A stretch of DNA of 64,000 bases from Chloroflexota bacterium (lineage in GTDB: Bacteria; Chloroflexota; UBA5177). Made by a program: the position numbers and the translations under genes. Positions 31,258-48,903 of this stretch are shown piece by piece. The first letter of the stretch is position 1. The number at the start of each line of letters is the position of its first letter. The stretch is from contig DAIORV010000001.1 of the NCBI GenBank assembly GCA_036752825.1, positions 42,843 to 106,842 on the forward strand. The letters are read 5' to 3'. The notes under the pieces were generated by a model. That model had not been told where the DNA came from, did no database searches, and saw only the letters and a program-made list of their open reading frames with translations.

Positions 31258-32817
31258 GTGATTCTCTTTCTGCGTATCGTCCCCGGCCTCTCGGTTGCTC
31301 TGCTGGAACGAGATCGACCCGAGCTTCGATCTCGGCCTCTGGTCATTGGGCAATCTGGTGGACGCGGGTTAGTGCTCGAAGCAAATACCTCCGCCCAAGG
31401 CTTTGGTATTCAACCCGGAATAACGCTCGCTCAGGCTCGTCATCACTGTCCTGATGCACTCGTTCTTATGATCGATTTCGCCCGCTGCTCCGCCGTCTGG
31501 GAGGAGATATGCGTCGTACTTCGCAGCTTCACTCCCCTCGTCCAGCCGCTCGAGCCAGGATCGGCCGTCTGCGACTTTTCCGGCTGCGAGCGGCATTGGG
31601 GAGATGCATGGAGCACTGCGCGCAGCGTCGCCGGTGCAATTTTCGGAGATACCGGAATCAAGCCGTGGATCGGCATCGGTGCTAATCGTCTGGTTGCCGA
31701 GCTTGCCTCTGTTGTGGCCGATACCGATACCGATGGCATAGCAGTGGTTGAGCAGGGAGAAGAGCAGGCCTTCCTGGCGGATCTTCCGCTTACCTCGCTA
31801 CCCGAGGTCGACTCAAACCTAACGCTCACCTTCCAGGTATTGGGACTTGCCACCGCTGGCCAGTTTGCTGCCCTGCCCACCTCATCCGTGAAGAATCGCT
31901 TCGGCGCATTGGGGGAGCGGCTCCATCGCTATGCCCGAGGGATAGATTTTCGCCCTATCGTTCCACCACCCCTCAGCCCGGCTATTAGCGCCCGCTACGA
32001 ATGTGAAGAAGGAACTCCGGAGGAGGCTCTCGACGGCCTTCGAAAGCTCGCTCTTCGAGTGTCTTCCGAGCTTCAACAAAAGAGGCTCGAAGGGAAGGTC
32101 ATTACGGTGCGGTTGTTCTGGGCTCATGCCTCAAATGGAATGACCCTGCTACCGAAAAATGGAGCTCGATCTCTCCCTGGCCGAGTCCCACCACTTCTTT
32201 CGAACGGTGATGAGAATGATCGACCTCCTCAAACCGAGCCTCCCCCTCCACCTGGAGACGCGCTGCTTTCGAGCGGGATTAAAGCCAATATCCCTATCCC
32301 CTACCGTATTCACTCCTATGCTCTTCCTCAACCAAACATTGACATGGGAAAACCACTTTTGACCAAACAAACCCATTCCCCCTCGTCTCGAGATGAAAAT
32401 GCTCTTTCGACCAAACAAACCCATTTCCAACCAGGCACTTTGACCGCCATGGTCCGGACGCCTATCAGTGCCGAAGCTCCATTGGCTGAGCGGGCGCAGC
32501 GACTTCTCCTTGGGCGGTTCGCGAAACGAAAGGATGAGCGGTCTCTTCGACTGGAGGCACTCGAGCTGGAGGTCTCTGAGTTCGCTCAGCCTGAACAGAT
32601 CAGCTTTGCTGAGCTGAATCGGATTAGTGACACCGGCGGGCTCGCTGGTATGAGTCCCGAGCGGCGGAGTGCGCTACTCCATGGAGATGAAACCTGGGCT
32701 GCTCGGTACGGGCACACTGCCTTCCGTCATGTGGCATCAATTGATCCGACCAATGTGGTGACGGAACGGCGAGTGCGTTGGGCTGAAGGTTTGAAGATGG
32801 CTCGGGGACGAGTATGA
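31258..32817 (+). CDS. imuB: ImuB: catalytically inactive Y-family polymerase-like protein of the SOS mutasome
   Basis: DinB-like N-terminal fold, but the catalytic acidic residues are replaced ('FLRIVPGLSVALLE' in place of DxD; 'VCDFSG' in place of the catalytic DE). Long Pro-rich C-terminal extension. GTG start 7 nt after GGAGG. Sits directly upstream of dnaE2 and downstream of the LexA box. Confidence 0.8.
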   Translation: MILFLRIVPGLSVALLERDRPELRSRPLVIGQSGGRGLVLEANTSAQGFGIQPGITLAQARHHCPDALVLMIDFARCSAVWEEICVVLRSFTPLVQPLEPGSAVCDFSGCERHWGDAWSTARSVAGAIFGDTGIKPWIGIGANRLVAELASVVADTDTDGIAVVEQGEEQAFLADLPLTSLPEVDSNLTLTFQVLGLATAGQFAALPTSSVKNRFGALGERLHRYARGIDFRPIVPPPLSPAISARYECEEGTPEEALDGLRKLALRVSSELQQKRLEGKVITVRLFWAHASNGMTLLPKNGARSLPGRVPPLLSNGDENDRPPQTEPPPPPGDALLSSGIKANIPIPYRIHSYALPQPNIDMGKPLLTKQTHSPSSRDENALSTKQTHFQPGTLTAMVRTPISAEAPLAERAQRLLLGRFAKRKDERSLRLEALELEVSEFAQPEQISFAELNRISDTGGLAGMSPERRSALLHGDETWAARYGHTAFRHVASIDPTNVVTERRVRWAEGLKMARGRV

Positions 32818-33053
32818 CAAAGCTGTACTTCGAGCCGATCACCGTGAAGTGTGAAGATGGCCGTCCACGTTCCTTCATATGGCGAAGAACGCTTCATCCC
32901 ATCAGTAGTGTCCTTAAACGTTGGATTGTTTGTGTTGACTGGTGGCGGCAGGAGATTTCCCGCCAGTACTACAAAGTCGAGTGCGAAAACCTGGGCGTCT
33001 ACGAGATCTATCGAGAACACGATAGGTGGTTTCTCGAGCGGCTCTATGACTGA
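32814..33053 (+). CDS. 79-aa Trp/Tyr-rich hypothetical protein encoded between imuB and dnaE2
   Basis: Its ATG overlaps the imuB stop (ATGA, 32814-32817). Its TGA overlaps the dnaE2 ATG (TGATG, 33051-33055). Translation: MTKLYFEPITVKCEDGRPRSFIWRRTLHPISSVLKRWIVCVDWWRQEISRQYYKVECENLGVYEIYREHDRWFLERLYD. Confidence 0.6.
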   Translation: MTKLYFEPITVKCEDGRPRSFIWRRTLHPISSVLKRWIVCVDWWRQEISRQYYKVECENLGVYEIYREHDRWFLERLYD

Positions 33054-36000
33054 TGATCCATCTCCACACACACAGCAACTTCAGCTTCCTGGACGGAGCT
33101 TCGGCGCCTGATCGTCTGGTAAAGCGGGCCGCCGAGCTGGAAATGCCGGCCCTCGCCTTGACTGACCATCACGGACTTTACGGTGCCGTACGCTTTCTTC
33201 ACGCGGCAAAAGCTGCAGGCATAAAACCCATCATCGGTGCCGAGATCTGCCTGCGTTCGGAGAATGGAGAAGGCCAGGCAAAGCCACATCTGGTGCTCCT
33301 CGCTAGAAATAGGGTGGGCTATGCAAATCTCTGCCGCATCATCACCAAGGCGCAGCTCGACTATCAGGATGATCCTCAGATCACCCTCACCGATCTTGCT
33401 CCGTATCACGAAGGCCTTATTGCGCTCTCTGGTTGCCGGCGAGGTGAGCTTCCGCGTGCCCTCTTAGCCGGCCATAGAGAGGAGGCGCTGTCAATCGCAC
33501 GGCGCTATGCGGACCTCTTTGGTGACCGCTTCTTGATTGAGCTCGAGCATCACCTTCTCCCCGACGATGACGCGCTGGTTGATGCGCTGCTCGACCTAGC
33601 AAGGAAGATCGGCCTACGTGCCGTCCTCGCTAACGATGTTCACTATGCCTACCCGCACGAATACCGTCTGCGTGACGTCATGGCTTGTATTCAGACACGA
33701 ACCACGCTCGATGAATGGACTGATATCCGTCATGCCAACGGCGAGTACTACCTGAAGTCCCAGCAGGAGATGCGCGAAGCTTTTGCTCTCCCCGCAAACA
33801 TCTTCGATGCCTGTCTTGCCACCACCCAAGAGATCGCCGACGATTGCAATCTTGAGCTGCTGGCCGTTTCCTGCCGTCCGCCGGACTATCCCGTACCTAA
33901 AGGTGAAACTGCTTTCTCACACCTCTACACCCTCTGTCAGGAAGGAGTGCGCAAGCTCTATCACCCGCTCACACCAGAAGTTAGCAATCAGCTCGCTTAC
34001 GAGCTTTCCATCATCGAGCAGATGGGGCTCGCCTCCTTCTTTCTCTGCGTCTGGGACATCATTCGCTTCTCCCGGGAACACGGCATACGATGCGCCGGAC
34101 GGGGTTCGGCCGCCGATTCAATCGTGGCCTATATTCTCGGCATCACCGCGGTCGATCCCCTGGCCAACAATCTGCTTTTCGAGCGCTTCCTCAATCCCGG
34201 ACGTGTCGGCATGCCGGATGTGGACATCGACTTCGACTCACGGCGGCGCGACGAGGTCATCGAGTACATACAGGATCGCTACACCACTGAGCACGCCGCC
34301 ATGGTGGCGAACGTCATCACCTATCGTTCTCGCTCTGCCTTCCGAGACGTGGCCAAGGCGATGGGCTTCGCTCCCTCGCTGGTCGATACTCTCGCCTCGA
34401 AGCTCAGCTATCGAGGTGTCAAAGAGATGCGTGAAGAGATGGTTTTGGCAGGTGATGTACAGCCGGCACTCGAGGGAGCCGTCGACGAGAACGCGTCGAA
34501 AGCTCAGACGCCGCTCGAGCAGGTGATCGAGCTCTGCGAGCAGCTCGACGGCTATCCTCGCCATCTCTCACTTCATAACGGTGGCATGCTCATTACTGCC
34601 GAGCCACTGATAGATGTGGTCCCGCTCGAATACGCTACCAGTGGCGTCCGCGTCTGTCAGTTCAACAAAGATGATGTCGAGATGCTCGGCCTGATCAAGT
34701 TCGACATCCTCGGTCTGCGAACCCTTTCCATCCTTGACGAAGCCGTGCAAACCATTAAAGAGGTGCGCGGAATCGATCTTCCGATCGACAACATTCCGCT
34801 CGACGATCCTGCCTGTTACGACCTGGCATGCTCGTCCAAGACCATCGGCGTCTTTCAGATCGAGAGCCCGGGCCAATGGGCGCTTCTCGCTCGCGCTCAA
34901 CCTCGCACGTTCGGCGATCTCATCATTCAGATTGCTCTCTTCCGGCCCGGTCCGTTACAGGGAGGGATGGTCGATCCATACATCGAAAGGCGTCTAGGCC
35001 GGGAGGCGGTCACATACTCCCATCCCAGCCTCGAGAACTGCTTGCGAGACACACTTGGTGTGGTGATCTTCCAGGAACAAGTGCTGCAGGTTGCGCATGA
35101 CTTTGCAGGCCTTTCCTACGCTGATGCCGACGGCCTGCGCCGCGCCATGTCCCACTACCGTACCGACACCGAGATGAATGTCTGCCGCGACATCTTCGTG
35201 GCAAGCGCAGTCGAGCTCGGGCGCGACCGGGAGCTCTCGGAACGCATGTACGAAGCCATTTCGTACTTCTCCGGTTACGGCTTCTGCCGGTCGCATGCCG
35301 CTGCCTTCGCCAAGACCGTCTACCAGACCCTTTTCCTCAAGGTCTATTACCCCGCAGAGTTCCTGGCCGCTATCCTCTCCAACGAGCCCTGCTGCTATTA
35401 CCCGACGCAAACCGTCATTGAAGAGGCAAGACGGTGGGGAATACGAGTTCTTCCCGTTGACATAAATAGAAGTACCGCTCGCTATACCGTCGAACACGGC
35501 GCGATTCGTATGGGAATCATGCAGGTAAAGGGACTCACCGAGGACTCAGCACTGGCGGTCGTCGAGGCGCGTGGGAAACGCCCATTCGCTACCTTCTCTG
35601 ACTTCTGGGCACGTACTTCGGTGGATCGTGATGTCGCTGAGGCCCTGATAAGTGTTGGTGCTTTTGACTCTTTGGGGATGAATCGGAGAGCGTTGCTCTG
35701 GGGACTGGAGGAAGTGATCCGTACCGTCGTTCGTAAGCGTGATCTGCAGTCCCGAATGAAGATCGATGTGCGGGCGGGCGCGCCAGATCTTCCGCCTCTT
35801 ACCGATCTCGATGTCGCTGGACTTGATTACACACTGCAAGGTGCGTCCGCTCGTTACAGCGTCATGTCCTTCTATCGCCGATCGCTGGCTCGGGCCAACG
35901 TCCTTTCGATAGGACAGATCGAAGGTAAACCGTCAGGCACCACGGTTCGCACTGGGGGCATCGTCATCAGCCGCCAGAGGCCACCCACTGCCAAAGGCAT

Positions 36001-36268
36001 GACCTTTCTCGTCCTGGCCGACGAGGAAGGAGAGCTCCCGGTGGCCATCTACCCCAATATCTACGAGAGCCATCGCCTCATTGTGAACGGCAGCTCATCC
36101 CTGGTCATCGAGGGGATAGTCGAGCGAGAGCGTTACGTCACGTCTCTCCTGGCCACACGCCTCTGGCGTCTCAACGATGTCGCCACACTCGATACCCGTC
36201 CTTCCATCCAGCGCGCCAAGCAGGCCAAGCTCTTCGACTCGGTCGCCACCAAGTACATACCGGGATGA
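33053..36268 (+). CDS. dnaE2: Error-prone DNA polymerase DnaE2 (ImuC)
   Basis: Second PolIII-alpha paralogue (1071 aa), with PHP motif 'MIHLHTHSNFSFLDG' and 'GVFQIESPG'. The shorter length and the LexA-box/imuB context mark it as DnaE2. Confidence 0.85.
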   Translation: MIHLHTHSNFSFLDGASAPDRLVKRAAELEMPALALTDHHGLYGAVRFLHAAKAAGIKPIIGAEICLRSENGEGQAKPHLVLLARNRVGYANLCRIITKAQLDYQDDPQITLTDLAPYHEGLIALSGCRRGELPRALLAGHREEALSIARRYADLFGDRFLIELEHHLLPDDDALVDALLDLARKIGLRAVLANDVHYAYPHEYRLRDVMACIQTRTTLDEWTDIRHANGEYYLKSQQEMREAFALPANIFDACLATTQEIADDCNLELLAVSCRPPDYPVPKGETAFSHLYTLCQEGVRKLYHPLTPEVSNQLAYELSIIEQMGLASFFLCVWDIIRFSREHGIRCAGRGSAADSIVAYILGITAVDPLANNLLFERFLNPGRVGMPDVDIDFDSRRRDEVIEYIQDRYTTEHAAMVANVITYRSRSAFRDVAKAMGFAPSLVDTLASKLSYRGVKEMREEMVLAGDVQPALEGAVDENASKAQTPLEQVIELCEQLDGYPRHLSLHNGGMLITAEPLIDVVPLEYATSGVRVCQFNKDDVEMLGLIKFDILGLRTLSILDEAVQTIKEVRGIDLPIDNIPLDDPACYDLACSSKTIGVFQIESPGQWALLARAQPRTFGDLIIQIALFRPGPLQGGMVDPYIERRLGREAVTYSHPSLENCLRDTLGVVIFQEQVLQVAHDFAGLSYADADGLRRAMSHYRTDTEMNVCRDIFVASAVELGRDRELSERMYEAISYFSGYGFCRSHAAAFAKTVYQTLFLKVYYPAEFLAAILSNEPCCYYPTQTVIEEARRWGIRVLPVDINRSTARYTVEHGAIRMGIMQVKGLTEDSALAVVEARGKRPFATFSDFWARTSVDRDVAEALISVGAFDSLGMNRRALLWGLEEVIRTVVRKRDLQSRMKIDVRAGAPDLPPLTDLDVAGLDYTLQGASARYSVMSFYRRSLARANVLSIGQIEGKPSGTTVRTGGIVISRQRPPTAKGMTFLVLADEEGELPVAIYPNIYESHRLIVNGSSSLVIEGIVERERYVTSLLATRLWRLNDVATLDTRPSIQRAKQAKLFDSVATKYIPG

Positions 36269-36683: not shown

Positions 36684-38663
36684 CTAGCTCATCGCTACGT
36701 GGCGTCTTTCGCCCTCGAGCCGCACCAGCAGGACGGCCACATCCGAAGAGGTCACGCCGGCGATGCGCGACGCTTGACCGATGGTGCGCGGACGCACTTT
36801 CTGCAATCTCTCTTGAGTCTCCGCTCTGAGACCGCGTACTGAGTCATAGTCGAAATGTTCAGGGATGGCTCGTTCCTCCAACCGGTGCAGACGTTGAACT
36901 TCGGCCTCTTGCCTCGAGATGTAACCGTCGTACTTGACCGCCGTCTCAACCTCTCGCTCTACCTCGGGGCTCAGTGTTTCCGAGACCAGTCCGAGCTTCC
37001 GGAGGTGCTCCATCCCGATACCCGGCCTCGCCAGCAGATCACGCGCGCTCACGTTTCGCTTTGCGAGAGACACGTCCATGTCCCGCAGGCGCTGCAGGTT
37101 ATCTCGACTGAGCGAAAGATGAGCAGTGCCGAGCGAGCTGACGCTCCGAGCAATTGCTGCTCGGCGTTCTGCCAGCTCGCAGGCGCGCTCCTCATCGACT
37201 AGGCCCAGCTCCTCTGCAAGCTCACCAAGTCGTTCTTCCGCGTTGTCCTGTCGCAGCAAGAGCCTGAACTCCGCCTGTGAAGTGTGCATACGATAGGGCT
37301 CATCCATCCTCTTGGTCACAAGGTCGTCGATCAGAACGCCAATGTAGGCCTGATCGCGCCTCAATACAACCTCTGGCGAATTGCGGGCGCGCCGGGCCGC
37401 GTTGATGCCTGCGATGATTCCTAGAGCTCCCGCTTCCTCATATCCCGTGGTGCCCATGATCTGACCGGCCAGAAAGAGACTTTTGAGCGGCTTGGACTCA
37501 AGAGTCGGCGAAACCTGCGTTCCGGGAAGGTAGTCGTATTCGATTGCATAGCCGGCTCGCATGATCTCGCATCGGCGCAGCGCCGGTATGCTTCGCAACA
37601 TCTCGAGCTGGACATCTTCTGGGAGTGAGGTGTTGGCTCCTTGCACGTAGGTCTCTCGCGTATGCCATCCTTCGGGTTCCAGGAACAGGTGATGGGAAGG
37701 TTTTTCGGAGAAGCGAACGATCTTGGTTTCGATCGACGGGCAGTACCTCGGACCGACACTGGTAATGCCGCCGTTGAACATGGGAGCTCGGTCCAGATTG
37801 GAGCGAATGATCTCGTGCGTTTGTTCGTTCGTCTGCACCAAATGGCACGAGAGCTGCTCCCGCCACGTGCTTCCTGAGTTGCCGGTCTCTTCGCGCAGAC
37901 TCGCGACCGGGGATCGAGACGTCGGTGACGCCTCGCGTCCCTCCCGAAACGCCCTTCGAGCGTCAAAGCTGAAAAACAGTGGTTCGTCGCTTCCTGGTTG
38001 CTCGCGGGTCAGGCCGTAGTCAATGCTGCGCGCATCGATCCTGGGCGGTGTCCCTGTCTTCAGTCTTCCAAGTACGAAGCCGCAGCGCTCCAGACTTGCC
38101 GACAGATTGTCCGCCGGAAACTCGCCGGCGCGGCCCGCGGGGATGGTTCTATCGCCAATGCAGATACGACCCTTCAGGAACGTTCCGGTGGTCAGCACGA
38201 TCGTGCGGGCGTGATACCGAGTCCCGGCACTGGTTATGACTCCTGAGGCAGTGGCCAGCCCGTCCACAGTTTTGATGATGATGTCGTCGACGGCGGCTTG
38301 TTTCACGTCGAGGTTTGGCTGCGACTCGAGGACTTCCTTCATCGACTGCGCGTAAGCTCTCTTGTCGCTCTGCGCGCGAAGCGCCTGCACGGCTGGGCCT
38401 TTACTCGTGTTCAGCATCCGGATTTGAATGCTTGTACGGTCCGTGTTTCGCCCCATCTCGCCGCCAAGCGCGTCGATCTCGCGTACCAGGTGTGCCTTCC
38501 CCGGCCCCCCGACCGAGGGGTTACAAGGCATCAGGGCGGTCGTGTCTAGATTGAGGGTGAAGGCTGCAGTTCGGCAGCCCATCCGAGCAGCAGCCAACGC
38601 GGCCTCACAACCGGCATGTCCGGTTCCAATCACGATCACGTCGTATTCGGGAGACGTCTGCAT
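36684..38663 (-). CDS. mnmG: tRNA uridine-5-carboxymethylaminomethyl synthesis enzyme MnmG (GidA)
   Basis: FAD motif 'YDVIVIGTGHAGCEAALAAARMG', 'GPRYCPSIE', and 'TTGYEEAGALGIIAGINA'. Start at ATG 38663 ('MQTSPEYDVIVIG'); the ORF-track start 38861 is an upstream extension. Confidence 0.9.
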   Translation of the reverse strand: MQTSPEYDVIVIGTGHAGCEAALAAARMGCRTAAFTLNLDTTALMPCNPSVGGPGKAHLVREIDALGGEMGRNTDRTSIQIRMLNTSKGPAVQALRAQSDKRAYAQSMKEVLESQPNLDVKQAAVDDIIIKTVDGLATASGVITSAGTRYHARTIVLTTGTFLKGRICIGDRTIPAGRAGEFPADNLSASLERCGFVLGRLKTGTPPRIDARSIDYGLTREQPGSDEPLFFSFDARRAFREGREASPTSRSPVASLREETGNSGSTWREQLSCHLVQTNEQTHEIIRSNLDRAPMFNGGITSVGPRYCPSIETKIVRFSEKPSHHLFLEPEGWHTRETYVQGANTSLPEDVQLEMLRSIPALRRCEIMRAGYAIEYDYLPGTQVSPTLESKPLKSLFLAGQIMGTTGYEEAGALGIIAGINAARRARNSPEVVLRRDQAYIGVLIDDLVTKRMDEPYRMHTSQAEFRLLLRQDNAEERLGELAEELGLVDEERACELAERRAAIARSVSSLGTAHLSLSRDNLQRLRDMDVSLAKRNVSARDLLARPGIGMEHLRKLGLVSETLSPEVEREVETAVKYDGYISRQEAEVQRLHRLEERAIPEHFDYDSVRGLRAETQERLQKVRPRTIGQASRIAGVTSSDVAVLLVRLEGERRHVAMS

Positions 38664-38729
38664 GACTTCCTGACTGCTAAAGTTGACCGATTCTATCAAT
38701 GGGCTCACCCGTTTCGGCCTGGGGTATGC

Positions 38730-40085
38730 GTGTTCCTCGTCCCGCGTGGCCACCGGAGAATTCTTAAGATTCCGTTCCGACGCGGCACAGGACTCGCCTT
38801 TCTGCTCGTGTCGGGCTTGCTGCCGGTTCACGCCTCGCACGCGGCGCCTTCCGTGCAGCATTTTTGGCTTGCCAGTCCCAATGGCCCTCGACGGGCTGCG
38901 TGCGTGAGCGAGAGCAAGTCCCCCCGAGTGGAGCTCTATGCCTGCGGTACCGCGGCCGTGCCTCCTGATCAGGCGAAATCACTCGTCTCCGATCTCGAGC
39001 ATCGCATCATTCCCACCGATCTCCGAGAATTCGGCCACCCACGTAATTTCCGGAAGGTCGTTGTCCTGCTCAGCCCGCTCGATTCCATGACGCTCGGATA
39101 CTTCGACGAAAACGATATCCTTCCGTCCGATCCGGCGCACTCCAACCATGCAAACGTCATCTATGTACGCCCGCCGTACCTAATGCCGGATGTCTCTGAG
39201 ATGGCTGATGTCGAGGAAGCGGCGGCGCATGAGCTGCAGCATTTGATCAACTTTCGCATTCGCGTGTTGGACAGGCATCTTCCCCCTCAGGAGTCGTGGC
39301 TTAATGAAGGTCTTGCTTTCTATGCGCAGATGGCCAATGGCTTCTGGACACAGAGGGATGTCCTGAAGGTCAAGGCCGCTGCATCCGATCCGGGCTGGTC
39401 CATAAACAGTCTTGTCGAGGGCGATCGCTTCCTAGTTCGGCACGCCCGTGTCGCATACGGCCGCGCCGGACTTTTTGTTTGCGACCTGGTCCGCCGCTAT
39501 GGCTCCTCCATCGCGCGAGCGGTCATCCGATCTCCGGGTTCCGGGCTCGAGGAGATCGATCGCGCCCTCCGGGCTCGCCGGCCTTCGGCCAGCGTGCGCT
39601 CGGCGTTCGCCCAGTGGGGAGCGGATTTGGTTACTTCCGGGGCCACGCCACAACGATGGGTCGGACGCCTCGGCCTGCAACACATCCAACAGGCGTCTCT
39701 GGTCTCTGCCGTGACGATTCGTTCTGACGCGCCTCCCTGGTCCTCGCCGTCCCTTCGAGTACGTCCATGGTCTCAATCCTTCGTGACACTTAGATCGAGC
39801 GGCTCGGGCGCCCTTCGCGTCACACTGAAAACAAAAAGCTCCTCACTCTTCGTGGCTCTTGTCGCTACTTCAAGCGAGGATCTGGCGCGGCCGCGAATCG
39901 CATGGTTTAGACCCAATGTCAAGGGAATTGCCGGCGCTCAGATCGGCAACTTCGGCGAGACGTACGATAGCGCTACCCTGGCAGCTTCCAATGCCCCAGC
40001 TCTTGGATCGAATCAAGTACCAGCACTTTTTATGGCGAGCGCCTCGGTTACTCCAAGCGGCGAGAGGCAGCCTACCGGCCACTGA
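38730..40085 (+). CDS. Secreted gluzincin (MA-clan, M1/M61-like) zinc metallopeptidase with a twin-arginine-like signal
   Basis: 'HELQHLINF...x18...WLNEGLAFYA' matches the spacing of HExxH...WLNEGFA in M1-type gluzincins, and no GAMEN-like motif is seen. GTG 38730 gives an N-terminus '..HRRILKIPFRRGTGLAFLLVSGLLPVHASHA|AP' (RRxxLK, an h-region, and an AxA cleavage site). Ser/Ala-rich C-terminal tail. Confidence 0.6.
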   Translation: MFLVPRGHRRILKIPFRRGTGLAFLLVSGLLPVHASHAAPSVQHFWLASPNGPRRAACVSESKSPRVELYACGTAAVPPDQAKSLVSDLEHRIIPTDLREFGHPRNFRKVVVLLSPLDSMTLGYFDENDILPSDPAHSNHANVIYVRPPYLMPDVSEMADVEEAAAHELQHLINFRIRVLDRHLPPQESWLNEGLAFYAQMANGFWTQRDVLKVKAAASDPGWSINSLVEGDRFLVRHARVAYGRAGLFVCDLVRRYGSSIARAVIRSPGSGLEEIDRALRARRPSASVRSAFAQWGADLVTSGATPQRWVGRLGLQHIQQASLVSAVTIRSDAPPWSSPSLRVRPWSQSFVTLRSSGSGALRVTLKTKSSSLFVALVATSSEDLARPRIAWFRPNVKGIAGAQIGNFGETYDSATLAASNAPALGSNQVPALFMASASVTPSGERQPTGH

Positions 40086-40965
40086 GACGTTCTTTCGCAG
40101 GGCGCGCTTCCAGATCAAGCGCGTAGACAATCATCTCGGCGGCATCTGGATTGCGGAATCCGAGAGATTCGAGAATATCGGCAACGTCCGGCTCAAGTCT
40201 GAGGACTGCCGAAACGCGGGTCATGTGCGCGCTCGCTGCTCTCGCCAATAGCGTCTTCACCAGCCCGACTACATCCTCTTTATGTCCCGAGAGGTAGCCG
40301 AAGCGCAGCACCGGCCGTACTGGACGGCTGGTTGCAATAGCCATTCCCTTTGACGGACCAGCCTTCGACATGAGAACCGAGTGATCCGCGAGCAGGAGCG
40401 CGAGCCTGCGACGATCCAGCGTGTAAGCCGTCCAGCCTTCGCTGTAGAGGGCTGGCACCCCGCGGTGACCCGACACGACATCCCACACGTCGTCGATGTC
40501 CGCGGGTAGGGCAAGGGTGTAGCCGTCTGAAGCCGTGACGGAGGCCGGCTCGACAGCCAACGAACGCATTCGCTCCACCTCCAGAAAGCCCGCATTTTCG
40601 GCAAGTCGATTGCTGGAGGGATTTGCCCCGTAAGTCGAAAGCCTCATGCGTCGACTGCCGGCCTGGCGCGCCCAGGATATTCCCTCGGTAAGCAGCGCAC
40701 TGCCAATTCCCCTGCTCTGCAGATCTTCGCGTACTCGTATGCCCTCAGCCCACGCGGTCCCGTCGGACTGAATCTCAACGTGCATCAATCCGCACACAAT
40801 GCCAGCGCGTATGGCCACGGTCAGGTGTCCGCTTCCGTCCGCCAGCCACTTGTCCCACACGAAGGGAACGTAGTCGCTGCCCTCCCATACATTTCGGGTG
40901 ATTTCCAGCATGGCGCTTGTGTCTGCGGGCGCCGCTTGCCGGACGACTATGCGCTCCGATGCCAT
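40072..40965 (-). CDS. GNAT-family N-acetyltransferase fused to a C-terminal domain of unknown function
   Basis: Acetyl-CoA motif 'VREDLQSRGIGSALL' in the N-terminal half; no assignable motif in the C-terminal ~150 aa. Start is probably ATG 40965 ('MASERIVVRQ'). Confidence 0.6.
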   Translation of the reverse strand: MASERIVVRQAAPADTSAMLEITRNVWEGSDYVPFVWDKWLADGSGHLTVAIRAGIVCGLMHVEIQSDGTAWAEGIRVREDLQSRGIGSALLTEGISWARQAGSRRMRLSTYGANPSSNRLAENAGFLEVERMRSLAVEPASVTASDGYTLALPADIDDVWDVVSGHRGVPALYSEGWTAYTLDRRRLALLLADHSVLMSKAGPSKGMAIATSRPVRPVLRFGYLSGHKEDVVGLVKTLLARAASAHMTRVSAVLRLEPDVADILESLGFRNPDAAEMIVYALDLEARPAKERLSGR

Positions 40966-41106
40966 CTCACAGAGTACCGTCCCCGCATTGCCGGACAGGT
41001 GTCCGCGCCCGTACAATGCCTGCAGCAGAGAACGCTCTGCGCGAAGGAGCGGCGCGTCGGATTGAGAGACCGGTTCCACGAAAAGCAGCTAGCAGCACAA
41101 AAACAC

Positions 41107-41133
41107 GGAGGCCTCTGGGCCTCCTTTTTTCTT
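41107..41133 (+). terminator. Terminator-like hairpin and U-tract in the pyrB leader (candidate attenuator)
   Basis: GGAGGCC-tctg-GGCCTCC at 41107-41124, then TTTTTTCTT at 41125-41133, ending 2 nt before the GAGGAG RBS of pyrB. The reverse strand also carries a T-run after the stem, so the structure is bidirectional. Confidence 0.45.
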
Positions 41134-41147
41134 GTGAGGAGCGACGG

Positions 41148-42125
41148 TTGAGATTGCATCACGTTGTAGAGGCGCAGGACTTCAATCGAGGGATGCTGGA
41201 AGAGCTCTTCTCGACCGCTCGCGTCATGGAAAAGGTCGTGGAAGACGGGGGTAGCAAACTTCTCGATGGGTGCATCATGGCCTCTCTGTTCTACGAGGAA
41301 AGCACCCGAACCCGTTTCTCTTTCGAGACAGCCATGCTTCGCCTGGGTGGCAGCGTCATATCGACGGAGAACGCGCGACAATTCTCGTCGGTGTCCAAAG
41401 GGGAGACCCTGGAAGACACCATACGGATCATGAACGGATATGCCGATGTCATCGTCATGCGCCATTACGAGAGTGGTGCAGCTCGACGAGCCGCTGACAT
41501 TTCGAGAGTTCCAATCGTAAATGCGGGCGATGGCACTGGTCAGCATCCCACGCAGGCCTTTCTCGATCTCTACACCATCGAGAAAGAGCTCGGCGGCATC
41601 GACAACCTCACTATCGCGGTTGTCGGGGACCTGGCAAACGGTCGTACGGTGCGTTCACTTTGTTACTTGCTGGCCAAGTACCGCAATGTTCGGGTCTACA
41701 TGGTGGCTCCGGAGGTGGTACGCATGCGCGAAGACATAAAGGATTACCTCTCGCGGCACGACGTTAGGTGGACCGAGGAATCCGACCTGCGGGAAGTCGT
41801 TGGAGAGGTCGATGTTCTCTACCAAACCAGAATTCAGAAAGAACGATTTGGCGACCGCTCCGAGGACTACCTGTCCGCTCGAGGAGTGTACGTGGTCGAT
41901 CGGGAGCTGCTGAAGACACTCCGCAAGAACGCTATCGTGATGCACCCGCTTCCCAGAGTGGATGAGATAACGGTTGATGTCGATGGGGACCCGCGAGCCG
42001 CATACTTCCGTCAAGCCCAAAACGGAGTGTTCATTCGCATGGCGCTGCTTGCCGGATGCCTTGGTCGCGACCTCGTGCCTGCCACCGTGTCCTCTTCCAC
42101 CCCCATCAACGGACACACTTCATGA
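41148..42125 (+). CDS. pyrB: Aspartate carbamoyltransferase catalytic subunit
   Basis: 'STRTR', 'HPTQAFLD', 'HPLPRVDEI'. TTG 41148 (or 41154) follows GAGGAG. The ORF-track start 40917 extends into the divergent region. No pyrI or pyrC is adjacent. Confidence 0.8.
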   Translation: MRLHHVVEAQDFNRGMLEELFSTARVMEKVVEDGGSKLLDGCIMASLFYEESTRTRFSFETAMLRLGGSVISTENARQFSSVSKGETLEDTIRIMNGYADVIVMRHYESGAARRAADISRVPIVNAGDGTGQHPTQAFLDLYTIEKELGGIDNLTIAVVGDLANGRTVRSLCYLLAKYRNVRVYMVAPEVVRMREDIKDYLSRHDVRWTEESDLREVVGEVDVLYQTRIQKERFGDRSEDYLSARGVYVVDRELLKTLRKNAIVMHPLPRVDEITVDVDGDPRAAYFRQAQNGVFIRMALLAGCLGRDLVPATVSSSTPINGHTS

Positions 42126-42187
42126 CATCGCACTCTGGCTGCAATTACGATTAGTCCTCACGTGCTGAGCTAGAAAGGCGACCCGAC

Positions 42188-44470
42188 GTGAACGTCGACC
42201 AGGTCGTCGAGCGTTTCCTCACCGACCCTCAGATAGCCGTAAATGTCGCCGCCTACCGCGAGCTTCCCGCATGCGATGCGCACTTCGAGGATTTTCCGGC
42301 CCAAATAGACGGGAGGATCGTGGAGGCTTTTCGTAGGGGAGGCATTTCCCGTCTCTATTCCCATCAACTAGAGGCAATCGACGCCGTGCTCGCCGGGAAG
42401 AACGTGGCGGTGGTGACTCCAACCGCGTCGGGAAAGACGCTCTGCTACAACGTCCCGGTACTCAACTCGATAGTCGCCGACAGTTCTGCCAGGGCGCTGT
42501 ATCTTTTCCCGACCAAGGCTCTCTCTCAGGATCAAGTGAGCGAGCTGCACGACGTTGTTACGGCGCTTGGCGTGGACATCAAAACATTCACGTACGACGG
42601 GGACACGCCGCAAACTGCCCGCAAAGCCATCCGCTCGGCGGGCCACATCGTGGTCACCAATCCTGACATGCTTCACACGGGCATCCTGCCGCACCACACG
42701 CGTTGGATCCGCCTTTTCGAAAACTTACGCTTCGTCGTTGTGGACGAGCTTCATGTCTATCGCGGAGTGTTTGGAAGTCACGTCACAAATGTACTTCGAC
42801 GGCTCAAGCGAATCTGCAAGTATTACGGCTCGGATCCGCAGTTCATCTGCTGCTCGGCCACGATCGCCAACCCACGGGAGCTTGCAGAACGGATCATTGA
42901 ACGGCCGATTGAGCTCGTCGACAGTAATGGAGCCCCGCGGGGCAAGAAACACGTGCTCATCTACAATCCGCCGGTCGTGAACCGCGAGCTGGGACTTCGT
43001 GGAAGCTCTCGGTTTGCAGCCCGAGACCTCGCCGCCGAACTCGTAACAAATGGCATCCAGACCTTGGTTTTCACGCGCAGCCGGACTGGCGTAGAGATCC
43101 TGCTCGGCTATCTACGCGAACGTCTCGGCCATCGCGAACGCGACACGATTCGTGGCTACCGGAGTGGGTATCTTCCGCTGCAGCGCCGTGAGATTGAGCG
43201 GGGCCTGAGGGACGGATCGGTGCGTGGCGTCGTGGCCACGAACGCCCTCGAGCTTGGTATCGATATCGGTGCCCTCGATGCCTGTGTAATCACGGGCTTC
43301 CCGGGCACGATTGCCAGCACCTGGCAGCAGATGGGCCGCGCCGGCAGGCGTAACGATTCTTCGGTCGCCATTCTCGTTGCCAGCAGCAACGCTCTGGATC
43401 AATTTCTTGCCACTCATCCTGACTACTTCTTTGATCGGTCCCCCGAATCGGGCCTGGTCGACCCCAACAACCTGATCATCCTGGTCAATCACATCAAGTG
43501 CGCCGCTTTCGAGCTTCCATTTAAGGATGGCGAGCAGTTTGGACCGGAGGGAACTGCTGAGATTCTGCGATTCCTCGAGCAGAACGAAGTAGTTCATCAC
43601 GCGGACGGAGTATGGCATTGGATGTCGGACTCTTTCCCGGCGCAGGAGATCAGTCTTCGTACGGCAGCGGCCGACAACGTGGTGATCGTCGATCAGGGGC
43701 CGCCCGCTCGGGTGGTCGGTGAAATTGATAGGGTCTCCGCTCCCAGCATGGTTCACGAGGAAGCGATCTACATCCATGAGGGACAGCAGTACCAGGTGGA
43801 GCGGCTAGACGTAGAGGAGAAAAAGGCGTTTGTTCGACTCGTCGATGTCGATTACTACACCGACGCCGAGCTGGCCGTGAAGGTAAACGTCCTCGAGGTC
43901 TTCGACGACGCTGACGGCCGAACTCACGGCGAAGTGTCGGTCACGTATCTGCCGACTATCTTCAAGAAGATCAAACTTGGTACGCATGAAAACGTGGGGT
44001 GGGGACAGATTCACCTCGCTGAGGACACGTTCCACACCACCGCCTACTGGTTGCGTTTGCCGGTCCATGTCGCCGAGACCATGCCTCGCATCGAGCTGGA
44101 ATGTGGGCTGCTCGGCATGGCAACGGTGCTCGGTCAAGTGGCCCCACTATTCCTCATGTGCGATCCGTCCGACATTGCAGTCTGGCCCGAGATCAAGTCG
44201 ACATTCACCAATGCGCCGACCGTGTATCTTTACGATCGGGTGCCTGGCGGCATCGGATTTAGCAAGCGACTGTTTCACATGCACGGGCAGCTTCTTGGCA
44301 ACGCCGCTCACATGATATCCCGATGCCCCTGCGAGTACGGATGCCCTTCGTGCGTAGGGCCGCAACATAGTCGGGAGCCCAACTCCAAAATGGCGACTCT
44401 GAGACTCATTGGAGTCATGCTCGATGAGGCACGGGTTCCGGTCCTGCAAGAGAAACCGAGGATGGCATGA
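42188..44470 (+). CDS. mrfA: DEAD/DEAH-box helicase with a C-terminal DUF1998 zinc-binding domain (B. subtilis MrfA/YprA-like)
   Basis: Walker A 'VTPTASGKTLCYN', DExH 'VVVDELHVYRG', helicase C motifs, and a terminal Cys cluster 'CPCEYGCPSCVGP' (DUF1998). Confidence 0.75.
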   Translation: MNVDQVVERFLTDPQIAVNVAAYRELPACDAHFEDFPAQIDGRIVEAFRRGGISRLYSHQLEAIDAVLAGKNVAVVTPTASGKTLCYNVPVLNSIVADSSARALYLFPTKALSQDQVSELHDVVTALGVDIKTFTYDGDTPQTARKAIRSAGHIVVTNPDMLHTGILPHHTRWIRLFENLRFVVVDELHVYRGVFGSHVTNVLRRLKRICKYYGSDPQFICCSATIANPRELAERIIERPIELVDSNGAPRGKKHVLIYNPPVVNRELGLRGSSRFAARDLAAELVTNGIQTLVFTRSRTGVEILLGYLRERLGHRERDTIRGYRSGYLPLQRREIERGLRDGSVRGVVATNALELGIDIGALDACVITGFPGTIASTWQQMGRAGRRNDSSVAILVASSNALDQFLATHPDYFFDRSPESGLVDPNNLIILVNHIKCAAFELPFKDGEQFGPEGTAEILRFLEQNEVVHHADGVWHWMSDSFPAQEISLRTAAADNVVIVDQGPPARVVGEIDRVSAPSMVHEEAIYIHEGQQYQVERLDVEEKKAFVRLVDVDYYTDAELAVKVNVLEVFDDADGRTHGEVSVTYLPTIFKKIKLGTHENVGWGQIHLAEDTFHTTAYWLRLPVHVAETMPRIELECGLLGMATVLGQVAPLFLMCDPSDIAVWPEIKSTFTNAPTVYLYDRVPGGIGFSKRLFHMHGQLLGNAAHMISRCPCEYGCPSCVGPQHSREPNSKMATLRLIGVMLDEARVPVLQEKPRMA

Positions 44471-45735
44471 GCCTCGAGGAAAGGCTTCAAAGCGTACGGA
44501 AGCACATGGCGCTCGCGCAAGCCGCAACGGTTGCTCCCCCGAGGCGATCGCCTATCCCTCACGACTGGACGGGCCGCCTGGCCGGCAATGTCGAGTTCTT
44601 GGGCGCGGCGGGCTCTTTCTCGGTCACCTCGTCGTACGAGTCCGGCCACACTCACGGGCAACAGCGATTTTCGGACCTCACGACCGTCACCGGCAACGCG
44701 TTCTCGGTCGTATGTAGGGACCCGGAGCTCTCGTACGCCAACCTTCAAGGTGCTGTGTTTCTCGATACGGAGACAACCGGGCTCGGAATGGGAACCGGGA
44801 CCTACGTCTTTCTCGTCGGAGCGGGCTATATGGAGGGGGACCGTTTCATCGTCAAGCAGTTCTTTCTGGACGCTCCAGGTGATGAGCGTGTGCTTCTCGA
44901 AGCGCTTGGCAGTTTCCTCTCCAGGTTCCCGGTCCTCATTACTTTCAACGGCAAGGCCTTCGATTGGCCGCTGCTGGAAAGCAGATTTAGGTTGCATCGG
45001 CGGTCCGTTCCATTCGACGATCCGCCCCACGTCGATCTCCTCCATCCAGCTCGCCGCCTCTGGAAAAGGCGCCTGGACAGTTGCGCGCTGTCGTCGCTCG
45101 AAACTCAGATTCTTGGGGTCCGTCGAACAATCGAGGACGTGCCGGGGTGGGAGATACCATTCCGGTACTTCGGGTATCAAAGGTCTGGAGATGGGTCTCA
45201 GCTCGAGGGCGTCTTTTACCACAATCTGGTCGACATACTGTCCCTCGCGTCGCTTGCCCTGCACATCGATCGCGTCGTCGCTGATCCCAACTGCGGACTG
45301 GTCGAGCACGCGACCGACTTCTTCTGCATAGGCAAGGTCTACGAGGTCAGTGGAGACGGCGACATGGCCGTCTATTGTTATGAGCGAGCTCTCAGGCTCG
45401 GTGTGCCTGATGAGCTGCGACCGGATTGCTTCCTGCGGCTGGGAACCCTGCACAAACGCCAGAGGCGATGGGACGCCGCGATTCAGGCGTGGGAGTCGCT
45501 GCTGGACGAGGGAGGTCGGGCGGGGCTGGTGGCTCGCGTAGAGCTTGCGAAGTTTTACGAGCACGTCGAACGCGATTACGTGACGGCTATCGATCATGTT
45601 CAGCACGCGCTGGTGCTCGCAGAGCTCTTCGATAGCCCATGGCCTGATGCCAATCTACGGGACCTGGAGCACCGATTGAGCAGACTGTTCAACCGCTCGA
45701 TTCGCGCTCGAGACTGGGCGGGGACATATGGTTGA
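44467..45735 (+). CDS. mrfB: DEDD/RNase-T-like exonuclease with a C-terminal TPR domain (MrfB/YprB-like)
   Basis: ATGA overlap with mrfA. Exo motif I 'FLDTETTGLG' and motif II 'ITFNGKAFDWPLL'. Helical TPR-like tail. Confidence 0.65.
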   Translation: MSLEERLQSVRKHMALAQAATVAPPRRSPIPHDWTGRLAGNVEFLGAAGSFSVTSSYESGHTHGQQRFSDLTTVTGNAFSVVCRDPELSYANLQGAVFLDTETTGLGMGTGTYVFLVGAGYMEGDRFIVKQFFLDAPGDERVLLEALGSFLSRFPVLITFNGKAFDWPLLESRFRLHRRSVPFDDPPHVDLLHPARRLWKRRLDSCALSSLETQILGVRRTIEDVPGWEIPFRYFGYQRSGDGSQLEGVFYHNLVDILSLASLALHIDRVVADPNCGLVEHATDFFCIGKVYEVSGDGDMAVYCYERALRLGVPDELRPDCFLRLGTLHKRQRRWDAAIQAWESLLDEGGRAGLVARVELAKFYEHVERDYVTAIDHVQHALVLAELFDSPWPDANLRDLEHRLSRLFNRSIRARDWAGTYG

Positions 45736-46667: not shown

Positions 46668-47749
46668 GCGTCATACCTGGAGAGGCTCGGGCCCTCATTT
46701 TGATCTTCGCTGTGGCCGGGCTGGCGGCGCTCGTGGTCGGCTCAGTGGCCGCGTCTCCACATCTCACCGGGACCGTCACTCCTACTCCGATCCACGTCTC
46801 TACCAAGGCTACCGTTGTACCCAATATCGTCCCCGGGCCCCTCAATGGCGAGCCGACACAGCGGCGCATCGCCCTGCGCCGCCCAATCGCTGCGGTCATC
46901 GACAATCTCTATCCGGACGCGCGGCCGCAAGCGGGACTGAATCGAGCCAGCCTGGTTTTCGAAACGCTCGCCGAGGGAGGCATTACCCGGCTCATGGGCG
47001 TCTTCCTCGAGCATGATGCGTCGCAAATCGGCCCAATCCGCAGTGCCAGACCGTATTTCGTGAAGTGGGCGGCGGGATATCGAGCTCTGTTTGTTCACGC
47101 CGGCGGATCCCCAGCGGCGTTGCAGCTACTCTACCTCACGCCCCAGCTAGGCAATGTCGAAGCGTTGCTTCCTCGACCTGAGTTCCACCGGGAATCGGAT
47201 CGTATCTCACCTCACAACCTGTTCGGCAGTACCGACGGTGTTCGCGCGATCGCCGTCCGCAACGCCTGGAATCATCGCGTTTCGTATGCGTGGCTGGCCC
47301 ACAAGACGCCTGCTCCCAAAGCGGAACGCGGTCACATCAGCCACATCCGCATCAATTTTTCGACACCCAACATCTCATCTCCTCCCGACTACGCGGTTGA
47401 CTATCGCTTCGAGCGAGCTCAGGATCTCTACGTTCGATCGGTCGGCGGCGTACCGGCGATCGACAGACTTGCGAATCGGCCTGTGGAGACGAGCAATGTG
47501 GTCCTGCTTTACACCTCGATCGCGCCGATACCAAACGATGCCGAGGCTCGGGTTGCCGTTGGAGTGGTCGGCAAGGGCAAAGCACTCATTTTTGAAGATG
47601 GAGGGATCGTCCGCGGAAGCTGGTCCAAATCAGGTGTCCTTGCACCCCTTCGGCTCAAGGACGCAACGGGCAGTCCGGTGAAGCTGAATCCGGGACAGAC
47701 CTGGTTTGAGGTGACCACCCCCGGAGACGCCACATGGGGAGGTAAATGA
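46640..47749 (+). CDS. DUF3048-domain lipoprotein/membrane-anchored protein (YerB-like)
   Basis: N-terminal signal-anchor 'LILIFAVAGLAALVVG', then 'AVIDNLYPDARPQAGLNRASLVFETLAEGGITRLMGVF...RSARPYF', characteristic of DUF3048. Confidence 0.6.
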   Translation: MARRQRAFVSVIPGEARALILIFAVAGLAALVVGSVAASPHLTGTVTPTPIHVSTKATVVPNIVPGPLNGEPTQRRIALRRPIAAVIDNLYPDARPQAGLNRASLVFETLAEGGITRLMGVFLEHDASQIGPIRSARPYFVKWAAGYRALFVHAGGSPAALQLLYLTPQLGNVEALLPRPEFHRESDRISPHNLFGSTDGVRAIAVRNAWNHRVSYAWLAHKTPAPKAERGHISHIRINFSTPNISSPPDYAVDYRFERAQDLYVRSVGGVPAIDRLANRPVETSNVVLLYTSIAPIPNDAEARVAVGVVGKGKALIFEDGGIVRGSWSKSGVLAPLRLKDATGSPVKLNPGQTWFEVTTPGDATWGGK

Positions 47750-48903
47750 AAGTCCTCATTGCTCCTCAGGGCTTCAAGGGCAGCCTGGAGGCGGTGGAGG
47801 TCGCGAATGCGATTGCCCGCGGCGTTCGACAGGTTTTCAGCGACGCGAGTCTGACCGTCTTGCCGATTGCGGACGGTGGCGAGGGAACCGTGCGGGCCTT
47901 GGTGCAGGCCAGCAATGGACGCTCGGTTGTAAGTAGGGTTACTGGTCCGCTCGGACGACCGGTCAACGCCACTTGGGGAATACTCGGTGACGAGCGAACC
48001 GCAGTAATTGAAATGGCGGCGGCTTCCGGACTCCCTTTGATACGGCGTGACGAACGCAATCCGATGCACACGACGTCATTTGGAACCGGAGAGCTGATCC
48101 TTCGTGCGCTCGACGCCGGTGTCCGACACGTCATCGTCGGTATTGGAGGCAGTGCCACGAACGACGGTGGAGCCGGCATGGCGCAGGCCCTCGGAGCTCA
48201 CTTGCTCGATGCTCGAGGGCAGGAGCTGGGGCCGGGCGGCGCGTCCCTCGGCACACTGGATCGCATCGACACGTCGGAGCTCGACCCGCGCATCAACGGA
48301 CTCGAGGTTGACGTTGCGTGCGACGTTAACAATCCGCTCACGGGCCCGACCGGGGCTAGCCTCGTGTACGGGCCTCAAAAAGGAGCCACGCCCCAAATGG
48401 CAGAGGAGCTGGACTCTGCTCTCTCACGGTATGCAGATATCTTGAAGCGCGATCTCGGTCAAGATGTTGGGGCCGTGCCCGGTGCTGGAGCAGCAGGCGG
48501 TCTCGGAGCAGGGCTCATTGCCTTCCTCCAAGCGCGACTGCGGCCCGGCGTAGACCTGGTATTCGGAGCCATGGACATAGAGCGCCACCTTGAGGGCGCC
48601 GATCTAGTGATCACCGGTGAGGGTCGGATAGATCGGCAAGATCTCTACGGAAAGGCTCCCATGGGAATCGCTCAACGGGCTCGGGCGAGAGGCATCCCGT
48701 GTTTCGCCGTGGCGGGCAGCACGGGCAGAGACTATCACGTGGTCTATGATCACGGACTCGATGCCGTGATCGGAACCGTAAACCGGCCCATGCAGCTCGA
48801 TCGCGCTATTGCGGAAGGCTCCCGGCTCATCACTGAAGCAGCAATGCGTGCCTGTCGGCTTCTGCGCGTGGGTATGCGCATACAGGCTGGTCGAGAGCCT
48901 TAG
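47746..48903 (+). CDS. Glycerate kinase (GlxK/GarK family)
   Basis: 'MKVLIAPQGFKGSL', 'IADGGEGT' and 'VITGEGRID' are glycerate-kinase family motifs. ATGA overlap with the upstream gene. Confidence 0.8.
   Translation: MKVLIAPQGFKGSLEAVEVANAIARGVRQVFSDASLTVLPIADGGEGTVRALVQASNGRSVVSRVTGPLGRPVNATWGILGDERTAVIEMAAASGLPLIRRDERNPMHTTSFGTGELILRALDAGVRHVIVGIGGSATNDGGAGMAQALGAHLLDARGQELGPGGASLGTLDRIDTSELDPRINGLEVDVACDVNNPLTGPTGASLVYGPQKGATPQMAEELDSALSRYADILKRDLGQDVGAVPGAGAAGGLGAGLIAFLQARLRPGVDLVFGAMDIERHLEGADLVITGEGRIDRQDLYGKAPMGIAQRARARGIPCFAVAGSTGRDYHVVYDHGLDAVIGTVNRPMQLDRAIAEGSRLITEAAMRACRLLRVGMRIQAGREP

Follow-up and report, generated by a model that had tools for sequence, protein, structure and literature searches.

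The pyrBI operon of Escherichia coli is preceded by an intrinsic terminator that lies inside a 135-bp leader gene, pyrL, and is not repressed at normal levels of uridine triphosphate (UTP), with pausing of RNA polymerase coupling translation to transcription (PMC4824070). A ribosome within a few nucleotides suppresses a terminator, lowering termination from ∼90% to <10% (PMC4824070), and a terminator placed early in a short open reading frame (ORF) has been shown to work unless pausing couples RNA polymerase and ribosome (PMC4824070; PMC5021804, citing Roland et al. 1988); tight coupling across pyrL is likewise described as required to stop the terminator from forming (PMC5021804, citing Roland et al. 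1988). As we read its anatomy from the genome sequence (NC_000913), pyrL has 44 codons, crosses the hairpin GCCCCTC-AAT-GAGGGGC and the T8 tract behind it, holds the Shine-Dalgarno (SD) sequence of pyrB (AGGAGA) and ends with a TAA 3 nt before the pyrB ATG. Here, we describe an element directly upstream of pyrB in a 64,000-nt stretch of DNA from a Chloroflexota bacterium (assembly GCA_036752825.1, contig DAIORV010000001.1; hereafter the window, with positions counted from its first nucleotide), which we tentatively read, at a little under an even chance, as a translation-gated transcription attenuator that is probably sensitive to pyrimidine nucleoside triphosphates. To our knowledge, ribosome-gated attenuation of pyrB without an antiterminator has been described only for enteric bacteria.

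The core of the element (Table 1) is a hairpin on the plus strand whose 7-bp stem contains 6 G-C pairs (arms at 41107-41113 and 41118-41124) and which is directly abutted by a T tract; the SD of pyrB follows 2 nt past the end of this tract, and the TTG start codon of pyrB lies 23 nt past its beginning. The whole reads, in order, ...CACAAAAACAC GGAGGCC TCTG GGCCTCC TTTTTTCTT GT GAGGAG CGACGG TTG AGA TTG CAT CAC... An initial annotation of the locus had proposed just such a hairpin and U tract 2 nt before the ribosome-binding site of pyrB, and both a reading of the sequence and a consensus terminator scan bear it out, with all parts falling inside 41089-41147. The computed folding energy of the hairpin is -13.2 kcal/mol in the window and ranges from -9 to -17 kcal/mol across all loci, and its 3' arm and the T tract together form an unbroken 14-nt pyrimidine run (41120-41133). 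The hallmarks of an intrinsic (Rho-independent) terminator, namely a G+C-rich stem of at least 5 bp, a loop of 3-8 nt and a U-rich tract directly after it, are present here and likewise in 13 other loci, one of which (L163) has a weakened stem; transcripts would thus be expected to be released at this U tract in vivo. Within 38000-44500, the hairpin is the top terminator-like site of the scan. Under loose criteria, the number of such sites in this interval is not above that in shuffled sequences (7 vs. 4.9 ± 2.0), and under stricter criteria about five sites remain across all 64 kb. Of the four strict sites besides the one before pyrB, at least three lie 39-97 nt past the stop codon of an ORF on the same strand (47746-48903, 60768-62315 and ftsK, 24013-26187), so canonical terminators seem to mark the ends of genes in this organism; the site before pyrB is the only strict one that does not follow a long gene.

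TABLE 1. Features of the pyrB leader in the window, followed by the leader ORFs of related pyrB loci (L numbers), given as SD motif, spacing in nt and start codon.
Feature	Position	Strand	Remarks
Divergent GNAT acetyltransferase, probable start ATG 40965 (297 aa)	40072..40965	-	Pfam Acetyltransf_1
-35-like hexamer TTGCCG	40988..40993	+	TTGCCG-18-TACAAT; TTGnnn 17-18 nt upstream of TACAAT in most related loci
-10 hexamer TACAAT	41012..41017	+	Exact TACAAT also in all related loci analysed
SD-like GAAGGAG of leader ORF	41043..41049	+	GGAG 12 nt before TTG; same GAAGGAG-N12-TTG in L165 and L170
Leader ORF, TTG start, 29 codons (MRDRFHEKQLAAQKHGGLWASFFLVRSDG)	41062..41151	+	Spans whole terminator and pyrB SD
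Terminator hairpin GGAGGCC-TCTG-GGCCTCC	41107..41124	+	Sequence read, terminator scan and folding; conserved in 14 loci
T tract TTTTTTCTT	41125..41133	+	Run of 5-7 T directly after stem in every hairpin-bearing locus
TGA directly after T tract	41135..41137	+	Leader-ORF stop in most relatives; out of frame with window leader ORF
pyrB SD GAGGAG	41136..41141	+	Kept as GAGGAG(G) in relatives
pyrB, aspartate carbamoyltransferase catalytic chain, 325 aa, TTG start	41148..42125	+	Pfam OTCace_N and OTCace; N terminus M-R-L-H-H-V aligns with all relatives
L084 leader ORF			GGAGG-6-GTG; peptide MFGKKATTEALGLLFL, then stop
L167 leader ORF			GGAGGT-5-GTG; peptide MLDRCSSLEAIGLLFL, then stop
L161 leader ORF			GGAGG-4-TTG; 24 codons
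L163 leader ORF			GGAG-5-TTG; 24 codons
L162 leader ORF			GGGAG-12-TTG; 25 codons
L165 leader ORF			GGAG-12-TTG; 23 codons
L005 leader ORF			GAGG-4-ATG; 20 codons
L007 leader ORF			GAGG-10-ATG; 21 codons
L081 and L168 leader ORFs			No SD before ATG; 30 codons

For comparison, we gathered pyrB loci from genomes, metagenomes and look-ups of exact proteins, among which the PyrB of the window groups with those of an uncultured Chloroflexota clade; a listing of related proteins comprised more than 100 PyrB sequences with an identity of 76% or higher. In this one clade, 14 distinct loci carry the hairpin and T tract, each time 19-25 nt ahead of the start of pyrB (the window, L165, L170, L161, L162, L163, L081, L168, L084, L167, L005, L007, L086 and L172); L169 is an independent ENA assembly identical to the window, L166 is on the same contig as L081, and L085 has the same sequence as L005. 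As the same hairpin, T tract and SD recur at the same position in 14 distinct loci, the hairpin is not a chance occurrence. It is present in a single copy per locus, on which ground an origin from dispersed or repetitive extragenic palindromic (REP)-like repeats was rejected. When one representative per lineage is compared, the mean pairwise identity from the hairpin to the pyrB start is 0.76 (0.53 in the shuffled control), close to the 0.78 of the first 60 nt of pyrB, while that of the leader body, from the transcription start site to the hairpin, is 0.50 and equals its shuffled control (0.50). The stem is conserved as sequence (GGAGGCC/GGCCTCC) and not through covariation, and the TGA after the T tract is kept in 13 of the 14 carriers, missing only in L086; as it is retained in L007 even though the SD has moved downstream there, it appears to be conserved as a stop codon. 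In a neighbour-joining tree of PyrB, carriers are found at the base (L007), in the core of the clade and, with L086, as the sister to non-carriers, and this spread suggests that the element is ancestral to the clade and was lost several times.

The relatives without the element differ among themselves in what precedes pyrB. L002 (∼2935-2960) has a stable hairpin, AAGCGCGCC-tgag-GGCGCGCTT, without a T tract at the corresponding site, L173 (∼1050-1200) has retained TACAAT and its leader of ∼150 nt is free of a terminator, and L001, L003, L082 and L087 have short, plain 5' untranslated regions; among the remaining sequences, L083 is near-identical to L001 and L088 has the same sequence as L006. 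We looked for a terminator in the last 60 nt before the start of 162 pyrB loci that offered at least 120 nt of upstream DNA; of those outside the clade, only L098, L140/141, L143 and L150 have one, and these are unrelated in sequence. L098 (∼1075-1128) and L150 (∼2455-2488) carry a hairpin with T7-8 16-26 nt before a pyrB gene whose product is 60% and 44% identical, respectively, over the N-terminal 80 residues; in L098, the hairpin AAACGCTCCC-ttat-TGGGGCGTTT is followed by T8 and GTGTGGGAGG, and a short ORF stops before it. Both may be attenuators of pyrB leaders that have a different design and arose independently.

The position of the promoter makes the terminator part of the pyrB leader. 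An exact TACAAT is found 111-170 nt upstream of the pyrB start in every carrier analysed (the 12 compared loci, L170 and L172), although the sequence around it is only ∼65% alike between loci; in the window it lies 90 nt upstream of the hairpin, with a predicted transcription start at ∼41023-41026, i.e., ∼80 nt before it. From the T tract to the start codon there are only ∼20 nt, which are occupied by the conserved SD. With a conserved promoter upstream and no room for one downstream, transcription of pyrB must cross the hairpin: it almost certainly begins upstream, pyrB would be expressed only by read-through, and the element is, by position, an attenuator. A pyrB transcription start downstream of the hairpin, the finding that the initial annotation had named as speaking against attenuation, is very unlikely as far as sequence can tell, given the conserved TTGnnn-17/18-TACAAT upstream. 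Its broader proposal of attenuation of the pyr type is supported as regards a leader terminator that pyrB transcription has to pass and, as set out below, is not supported as regards control by PyrR.

The same annotation had also noted that the hairpin reads as a terminator on the opposite strand and might insulate pyrB from the divergently transcribed gene for a GNAT acetyltransferase. The minus strand of the window does pass the terminator scan too (GGAGGCCCAGAGGCCTCC followed by the tail GTGTTTTTGT), and the A run upstream of the hairpin that gives rise to this minus-strand T tract is absent from all relatives compared, so that the bidirectional form is unique to the window. Moreover, there is nothing to terminate on the minus strand, because GNAT and pyrB diverge from the region, and in L081/L166, where the upstream gene is instead a co-oriented NUDIX gene, the element is unchanged. 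The comparison with relatives thus contradicts a bidirectional terminator that insulates the two genes, which we consider a far-fetched explanation.

What could control read-through was sought in the leader itself. At the gathering score, no Rfam family matched the window or 11 related loci, and the PyrR-binding site (RF00515) gave no match even at E≤10 in 40850-41300 of the window and none at the gathering score in the 11 related loci. At E≤10, the only matches in 40850-41300 were sub-threshold, terminator-driven ones to small RNAs; the one to PrrB/RsmZ (41000-41132, plus strand; 18.8 bits vs. a gathering score of 44, E=0.032) owes its score mainly to the terminator, with some contribution from a few GGA motifs, and does not recur in relatives. 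Taken as a whole, the leader folds no more stably than its shuffled versions (z=0.21), and minimum-free-energy structures of the full-length leaders show the terminator in every one of the 12 leaders folded. In these 12, folded both truncated and in full, no alternative pairing of the 5' arm is shared that could act as an antiterminator or anti-antiterminator. A conserved structured aptamer was not found either, with the identity of the leader body at the level of shuffled sequence and no Rfam match, and no residue or codon run is common to the variable parts of the leader peptides that could serve as a regulatory codon run. Of the features that the initial annotation had suggested looking for upstream, a PyrR-binding loop was thus not found by the Rfam search at E≤10, and alternative antiterminator folds were not shared among the 12 leaders. 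Together, the unconstrained leader body and the negative results from Rfam and folding argue against a riboswitch, a PyrR-type site and a classical antiterminator.

These results also bear on the possibility that the terminator is real and the extent of read-through depends on a trans-acting factor (an RNA-binding protein similar to PyrR or of another kind, a factor of the NusA/NusG type or a small RNA), or that it simply lowers pyrB expression by constitutive partial termination, the short ORF that crosses it being incidental. The terminator and promoter are solid, an ORF by itself is expected by chance, and the conservation of the stem in sequence rather than by covariation could be due to a factor that recognises this sequence. 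With no constraint on the leader body and no alternative fold in common, such a factor could only bind at the terminator itself; RF00515 has no match, and the model leaves unexplained both the conserved TGA and the enrichment of SD-plus-start combinations described next. We regard it as unlikely.

Every carrier has a short ORF of 15-30 codons through the terminator. In the window, it is preceded by an SD-like motif, a feature that the initial annotation did not include, and its TGA stop codon (41149-41151) overlaps the TTG of pyrB as TTGA. L170 has the same GAAGGAG-N12-TTG and an ORF in the same frame, 6 nt shorter, that passes the hairpin, contains the pyrB SD and ends in a stop codon overlapping the pyrB TTG. 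In most loci, the ORF stops instead at the TGA 1-3 nt past the T tract, which leaves 10 nt (in L081 and L168, 14 nt) to the start of pyrB, and close relatives switch between the stops at 41135-41137 (L165) and 41149-41151 (window, L170) through leader indels of 1-2 nt. In L172, GGAGGTG-11-GTG at -85 opens an ORF of 24 codons whose stop ends at -10, and in L086, from which the TGA is absent, a frame that starts with ATG runs across the hairpin in frame into pyrB, as read from the sequence.

Under a motif-based criterion (an SD four-mer 4-12 nt before a start codon in frame with the conserved TGA, with dinucleotide shuffles as the null), 9 of 11 loci qualify, at per-locus null probabilities of 0.04-0.26 (Poisson-binomial P∼1e-7 for all loci and 5e-5 with one per lineage). 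If the SD is defined by energy and an ORF across the hairpin is accepted in any frame, 12 of 13 loci do so (P∼1e-5; P=0.003, 0.026 and 0.014 for lineage representatives at three thresholds). L172 and L170, both fetched after the motif-based criteria had been fixed, fit the pattern of an SD-preceded ORF. Translation of the leader ORF is thus moderately supported by the enrichment of SD and start codon.

A promoter, an SD, an ORF and a terminator make up a complete unit of ∼110 nt, which could be an independent small gene for a micro-protein or a small RNA, with read-through into pyrB being secondary; the weak, sub-threshold resemblance to terminator-ended small RNAs such as PrrB/RsmZ (18.8 of 44 bits) would fit. 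Neither the peptide nor the body of the RNA is conserved, though, the unit always abuts pyrB with one copy per locus, relatives that lack it have a plain promoter in its place, and no other promoter for pyrB is possible downstream, all of which makes a small gene very improbable. The stop codons, on the other hand, raise the possibility of a mainly translational device, in which ribosomes from the upstream ORF pass on to pyrB by reinitiation, the U-rich tract enhances translation and the hairpin stabilises the mRNA. The place of the leader stop agrees with this: in most loci 10 nt separate it from the start of pyrB, in L081 and L168 the distance is 14 nt, and in the window and L170 the two overlap. 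A stop-to-start distance of 10-11 nt is over-represented in several bacterial phyla and has been interpreted as reflecting reinitiation (PMC4833913). Still, a G+C-rich stem of 6-8 bp directly followed by 5-7 U is the signature of a terminator, and the hairpin is the most conserved part even though neither reinitiation nor enhancement requires it. A translational role is moreover compatible with attenuation rather than exclusive of it, and a device of this kind in its own right seems to us distinctly unlikely.

Of the two types of attenuation classically associated with pyr genes, the UTP-sensitive one of E. coli pyrBI therefore fits best, because an SD-preceded leader ORF crosses the terminator. 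In the translation-gated attenuator that we propose, transcription would begin ∼6-9 nt past the conserved TACAAT, a step strongly suggested by its conservation, and ∼80 nt further on RNA polymerase would meet the terminator. By default, as its canonical anatomy and conservation imply, the transcript would stop at the U tract and pyrB, with its SD and start 3-23 nt beyond, would not be made. A ribosome translating the leader ORF across the hairpin close behind the polymerase would, by analogy with the work on E. coli, cover or unwind the 5' arm, so that the hairpin is blocked and transcription reads through into pyrB. More speculatively, pyrimidine nucleotides could be sensed at the point of the termination decision itself, where the polymerase must add 12-14 consecutive pyrimidines (CCUCC and U6-7): scarce UTP or cytidine triphosphate (CTP) might slow it at this run and let the ribosome catch up. 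Finally, with the leader stop 10 nt before the pyrB start or overlapping it, the same ribosome may reinitiate on pyrB. Relief of termination by translation, with UTP/CTP as the signal, is thus drawn from the analogy with pyrBI, and it is favoured by the fact that no antiterminator, aptamer or PyrR site was found that could control the terminator instead.

Several observations weigh against this reading. About half of the close relatives lack the element (L001, L002, L003, L004, L006, L082, L087 and L173). A U-rich pause cluster and a pause hairpin are both missing upstream of the terminator: the leader at 41062-41106 contains no run of three or more T, and relatives have no consistent U-rich stretch. 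A shortage of UTP could just as well promote termination at the U tract. For an ORF that ends at the conserved TGA the shuffle null is 0.4-0.65, and one spanning the hairpin with no SD requirement is expected by chance (null of 0.83-1.0 per locus); we therefore rejected the mere presence of an ORF across the hairpin as uninformative, and the ORF evidence rests on the SD requirement. As the motif-based definition of the SD was chosen after the data had been seen, we treat this support as moderate, and the significance of the enrichment on independent lineages is moderate as well. The SDs are weak or distant in several loci, with a spacing of 12 nt in the window and none before the ATG of L081 and L168. 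The hairpin and T tract (41107-41147) interrupt none of the three frames, two of which stop at 41135-41137 and 41149-41151 while the third is the frame of pyrB, so that conservation of the frame is weak evidence. The leader peptides are not conserved, and a comparison by eye of the L081 and L168 ORFs revealed no third-position bias and no sign of purifying selection on the peptide; the only shared part, a C-terminal L/P-F-L, is forced by CCTCC and the T run. Unconserved peptides are, for their part, what a mechanism in which only the act of translation matters would lead one to expect.

The surroundings of pyrB are simple. In agreement with the initial annotation, the gene is solitary at this locus, with GNAT upstream, a DEAD/MZB helicase downstream and no pyrR or any other pyr gene among the 14 ORFs scanned in the 64 kb of the window. 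The start of GNAT is most likely ATG 40965 rather than GTG 41079, as homologues are called at 287-298 aa, which leaves an intergenic region of 182 bp. A -10-like TACTCT on the minus strand (40971-40976) lies 5 nt upstream of this ATG (site within 40963-40976), and the arrangement recurs as TACTCT-N5-ATG in L165 and L170, as TACCCT-N5 in L161 and as TATCCT-N3 in L162, which suggests a leaderless GNAT mRNA and back-to-back divergent promoters. The order GNAT-pyrB-helicase is kept in most relatives. The helicase (DEAD, Helicase_C, WHD_HRQ1 and MZB domains; 42188-44470, plus strand) directly follows pyrB, and its gene overlaps by 4 nt with that of an RNase_H_2 and TPR protein (44467-45735, plus strand), a pair that we take to resemble MrfA/MrfB. 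Farther away, an IMS-family (ImuB-like) ORF (31258-32817, plus strand) precedes a 1071-aa homologue of the DNA polymerase III alpha subunit (33053-36268, plus strand), and the pair looks like a mutagenesis cassette of the imuB-dnaE2 type.

The leader also affects gene calling. Public annotations give PyrB lengths of 369, 366 or 346 aa instead of ∼325 (P0003, P0013, P0015, P0016 and P0042; L161, L162 and L172; 41016-41147 in the window), the longer calls beginning at an upstream in-frame codon, such as the ATG within TACAATG, as the frame of pyrB happens to be open across the leader. We rejected an N-terminally extended PyrB starting from this ATG, as the extension is not conserved as protein and holds the terminator and SD; these calls are probably start-codon errors and should in practice be corrected to ∼325 aa.

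Among the attenuators described so far, those of trpL, hisL and pheL share with the Chloroflexota element a short translated leader ORF (translation being predicted here) that controls an intrinsic terminator. In them, the ORF ends well before the terminator, and runs of regulatory codons and alternative 2:3 and 3:4 hairpins decide the outcome, whereas the Chloroflexota ORF contains the terminator and has no shared codon run or alternative hairpin. PyrR attenuation, found in Bacillus and many phyla (RF00515), likewise relies on a terminator in a pyr leader and on premature termination that responds to pyrimidines, but the Chloroflexota leader lacks the PyrR-binding loop, the antiterminator/anti-antiterminator pair and a conserved leader sequence. 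The Thermus pyr operon, described by Van de Casteele and colleagues in 1997, reportedly combines a leader peptide with pyrR and a PyrR box, the leader ORF overlapping pyrR; it would thus provide a non-enteric example of a translated leader ORF that overlaps an attenuator before pyr genes, although neither pyrR, nor an overlap with it, nor a PyrR box is present at the Chloroflexota locus.

The pyrBI leader of E. coli and Salmonella concerns the same gene and has its intrinsic terminator in the same place, a few tens of nucleotides before pyrB and between the promoter and the start codon. In E. coli, as here, the hairpin and U tract lie within a leader ORF that has its own SD and that, in the window, also takes in the pyrB SD and extends to the pyrB start, and there is no antiterminator hairpin, the ribosome itself acting as the antiterminator in E. 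coli (PMC5021804, PMC4824070). The differences are equally clear: the Chloroflexota ORF has 15-30 codons instead of 44, there is no pyrI, and the host belongs to another phylum. In E. coli, CCGTTTTTCTTCCCGTT lies upstream of the terminator, while the Chloroflexota leader is without such a pause cluster or a pause hairpin, and its only pyrimidine-rich stretch is the 3' arm of the terminator with the U tract. Nor does the Chloroflexota leader have, near the predicted start, a T run that would hint at the reiterative transcription known from E. coli (at AATTTG; PMC6524683). Homology to PyrL was rejected, since PF08052 matches E. coli PyrL with 117 bits and no Pfam family matched six Chloroflexota peptides at E≤10.

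If our reading is correct, the element would be a non-homologous, simpler version of the pyrBI attenuator, probably ancestral to an uncultured Chloroflexota clade, and would point to a recurrent design for the sensing of pyrimidine nucleotides; it would also provide direct sequence evidence that transcription and translation are coupled closely enough for regulatory use in Chloroflexota, and the terminator's own pyrimidine run might suffice as the sensor. In its most specific form, which we put forward as a possibility on the less probable side, a soil Chloroflexota clade would have arrived on its own at a minimal attenuator of the pyrL kind, lacking both an antiterminator and a separate pause module, in which the pyrimidine run of 12-14 nt (CCUCC and the U tract) senses UTP/CTP and an ORF of 15-30 codons ending after the U tract serves both for the veto of the ribosome over termination and for reinitiation on pyrB. 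On the sequence evidence, the element resembles the pyrBI attenuator of enteric bacteria without belonging to the PyrL family, and appears to have arisen independently of it.

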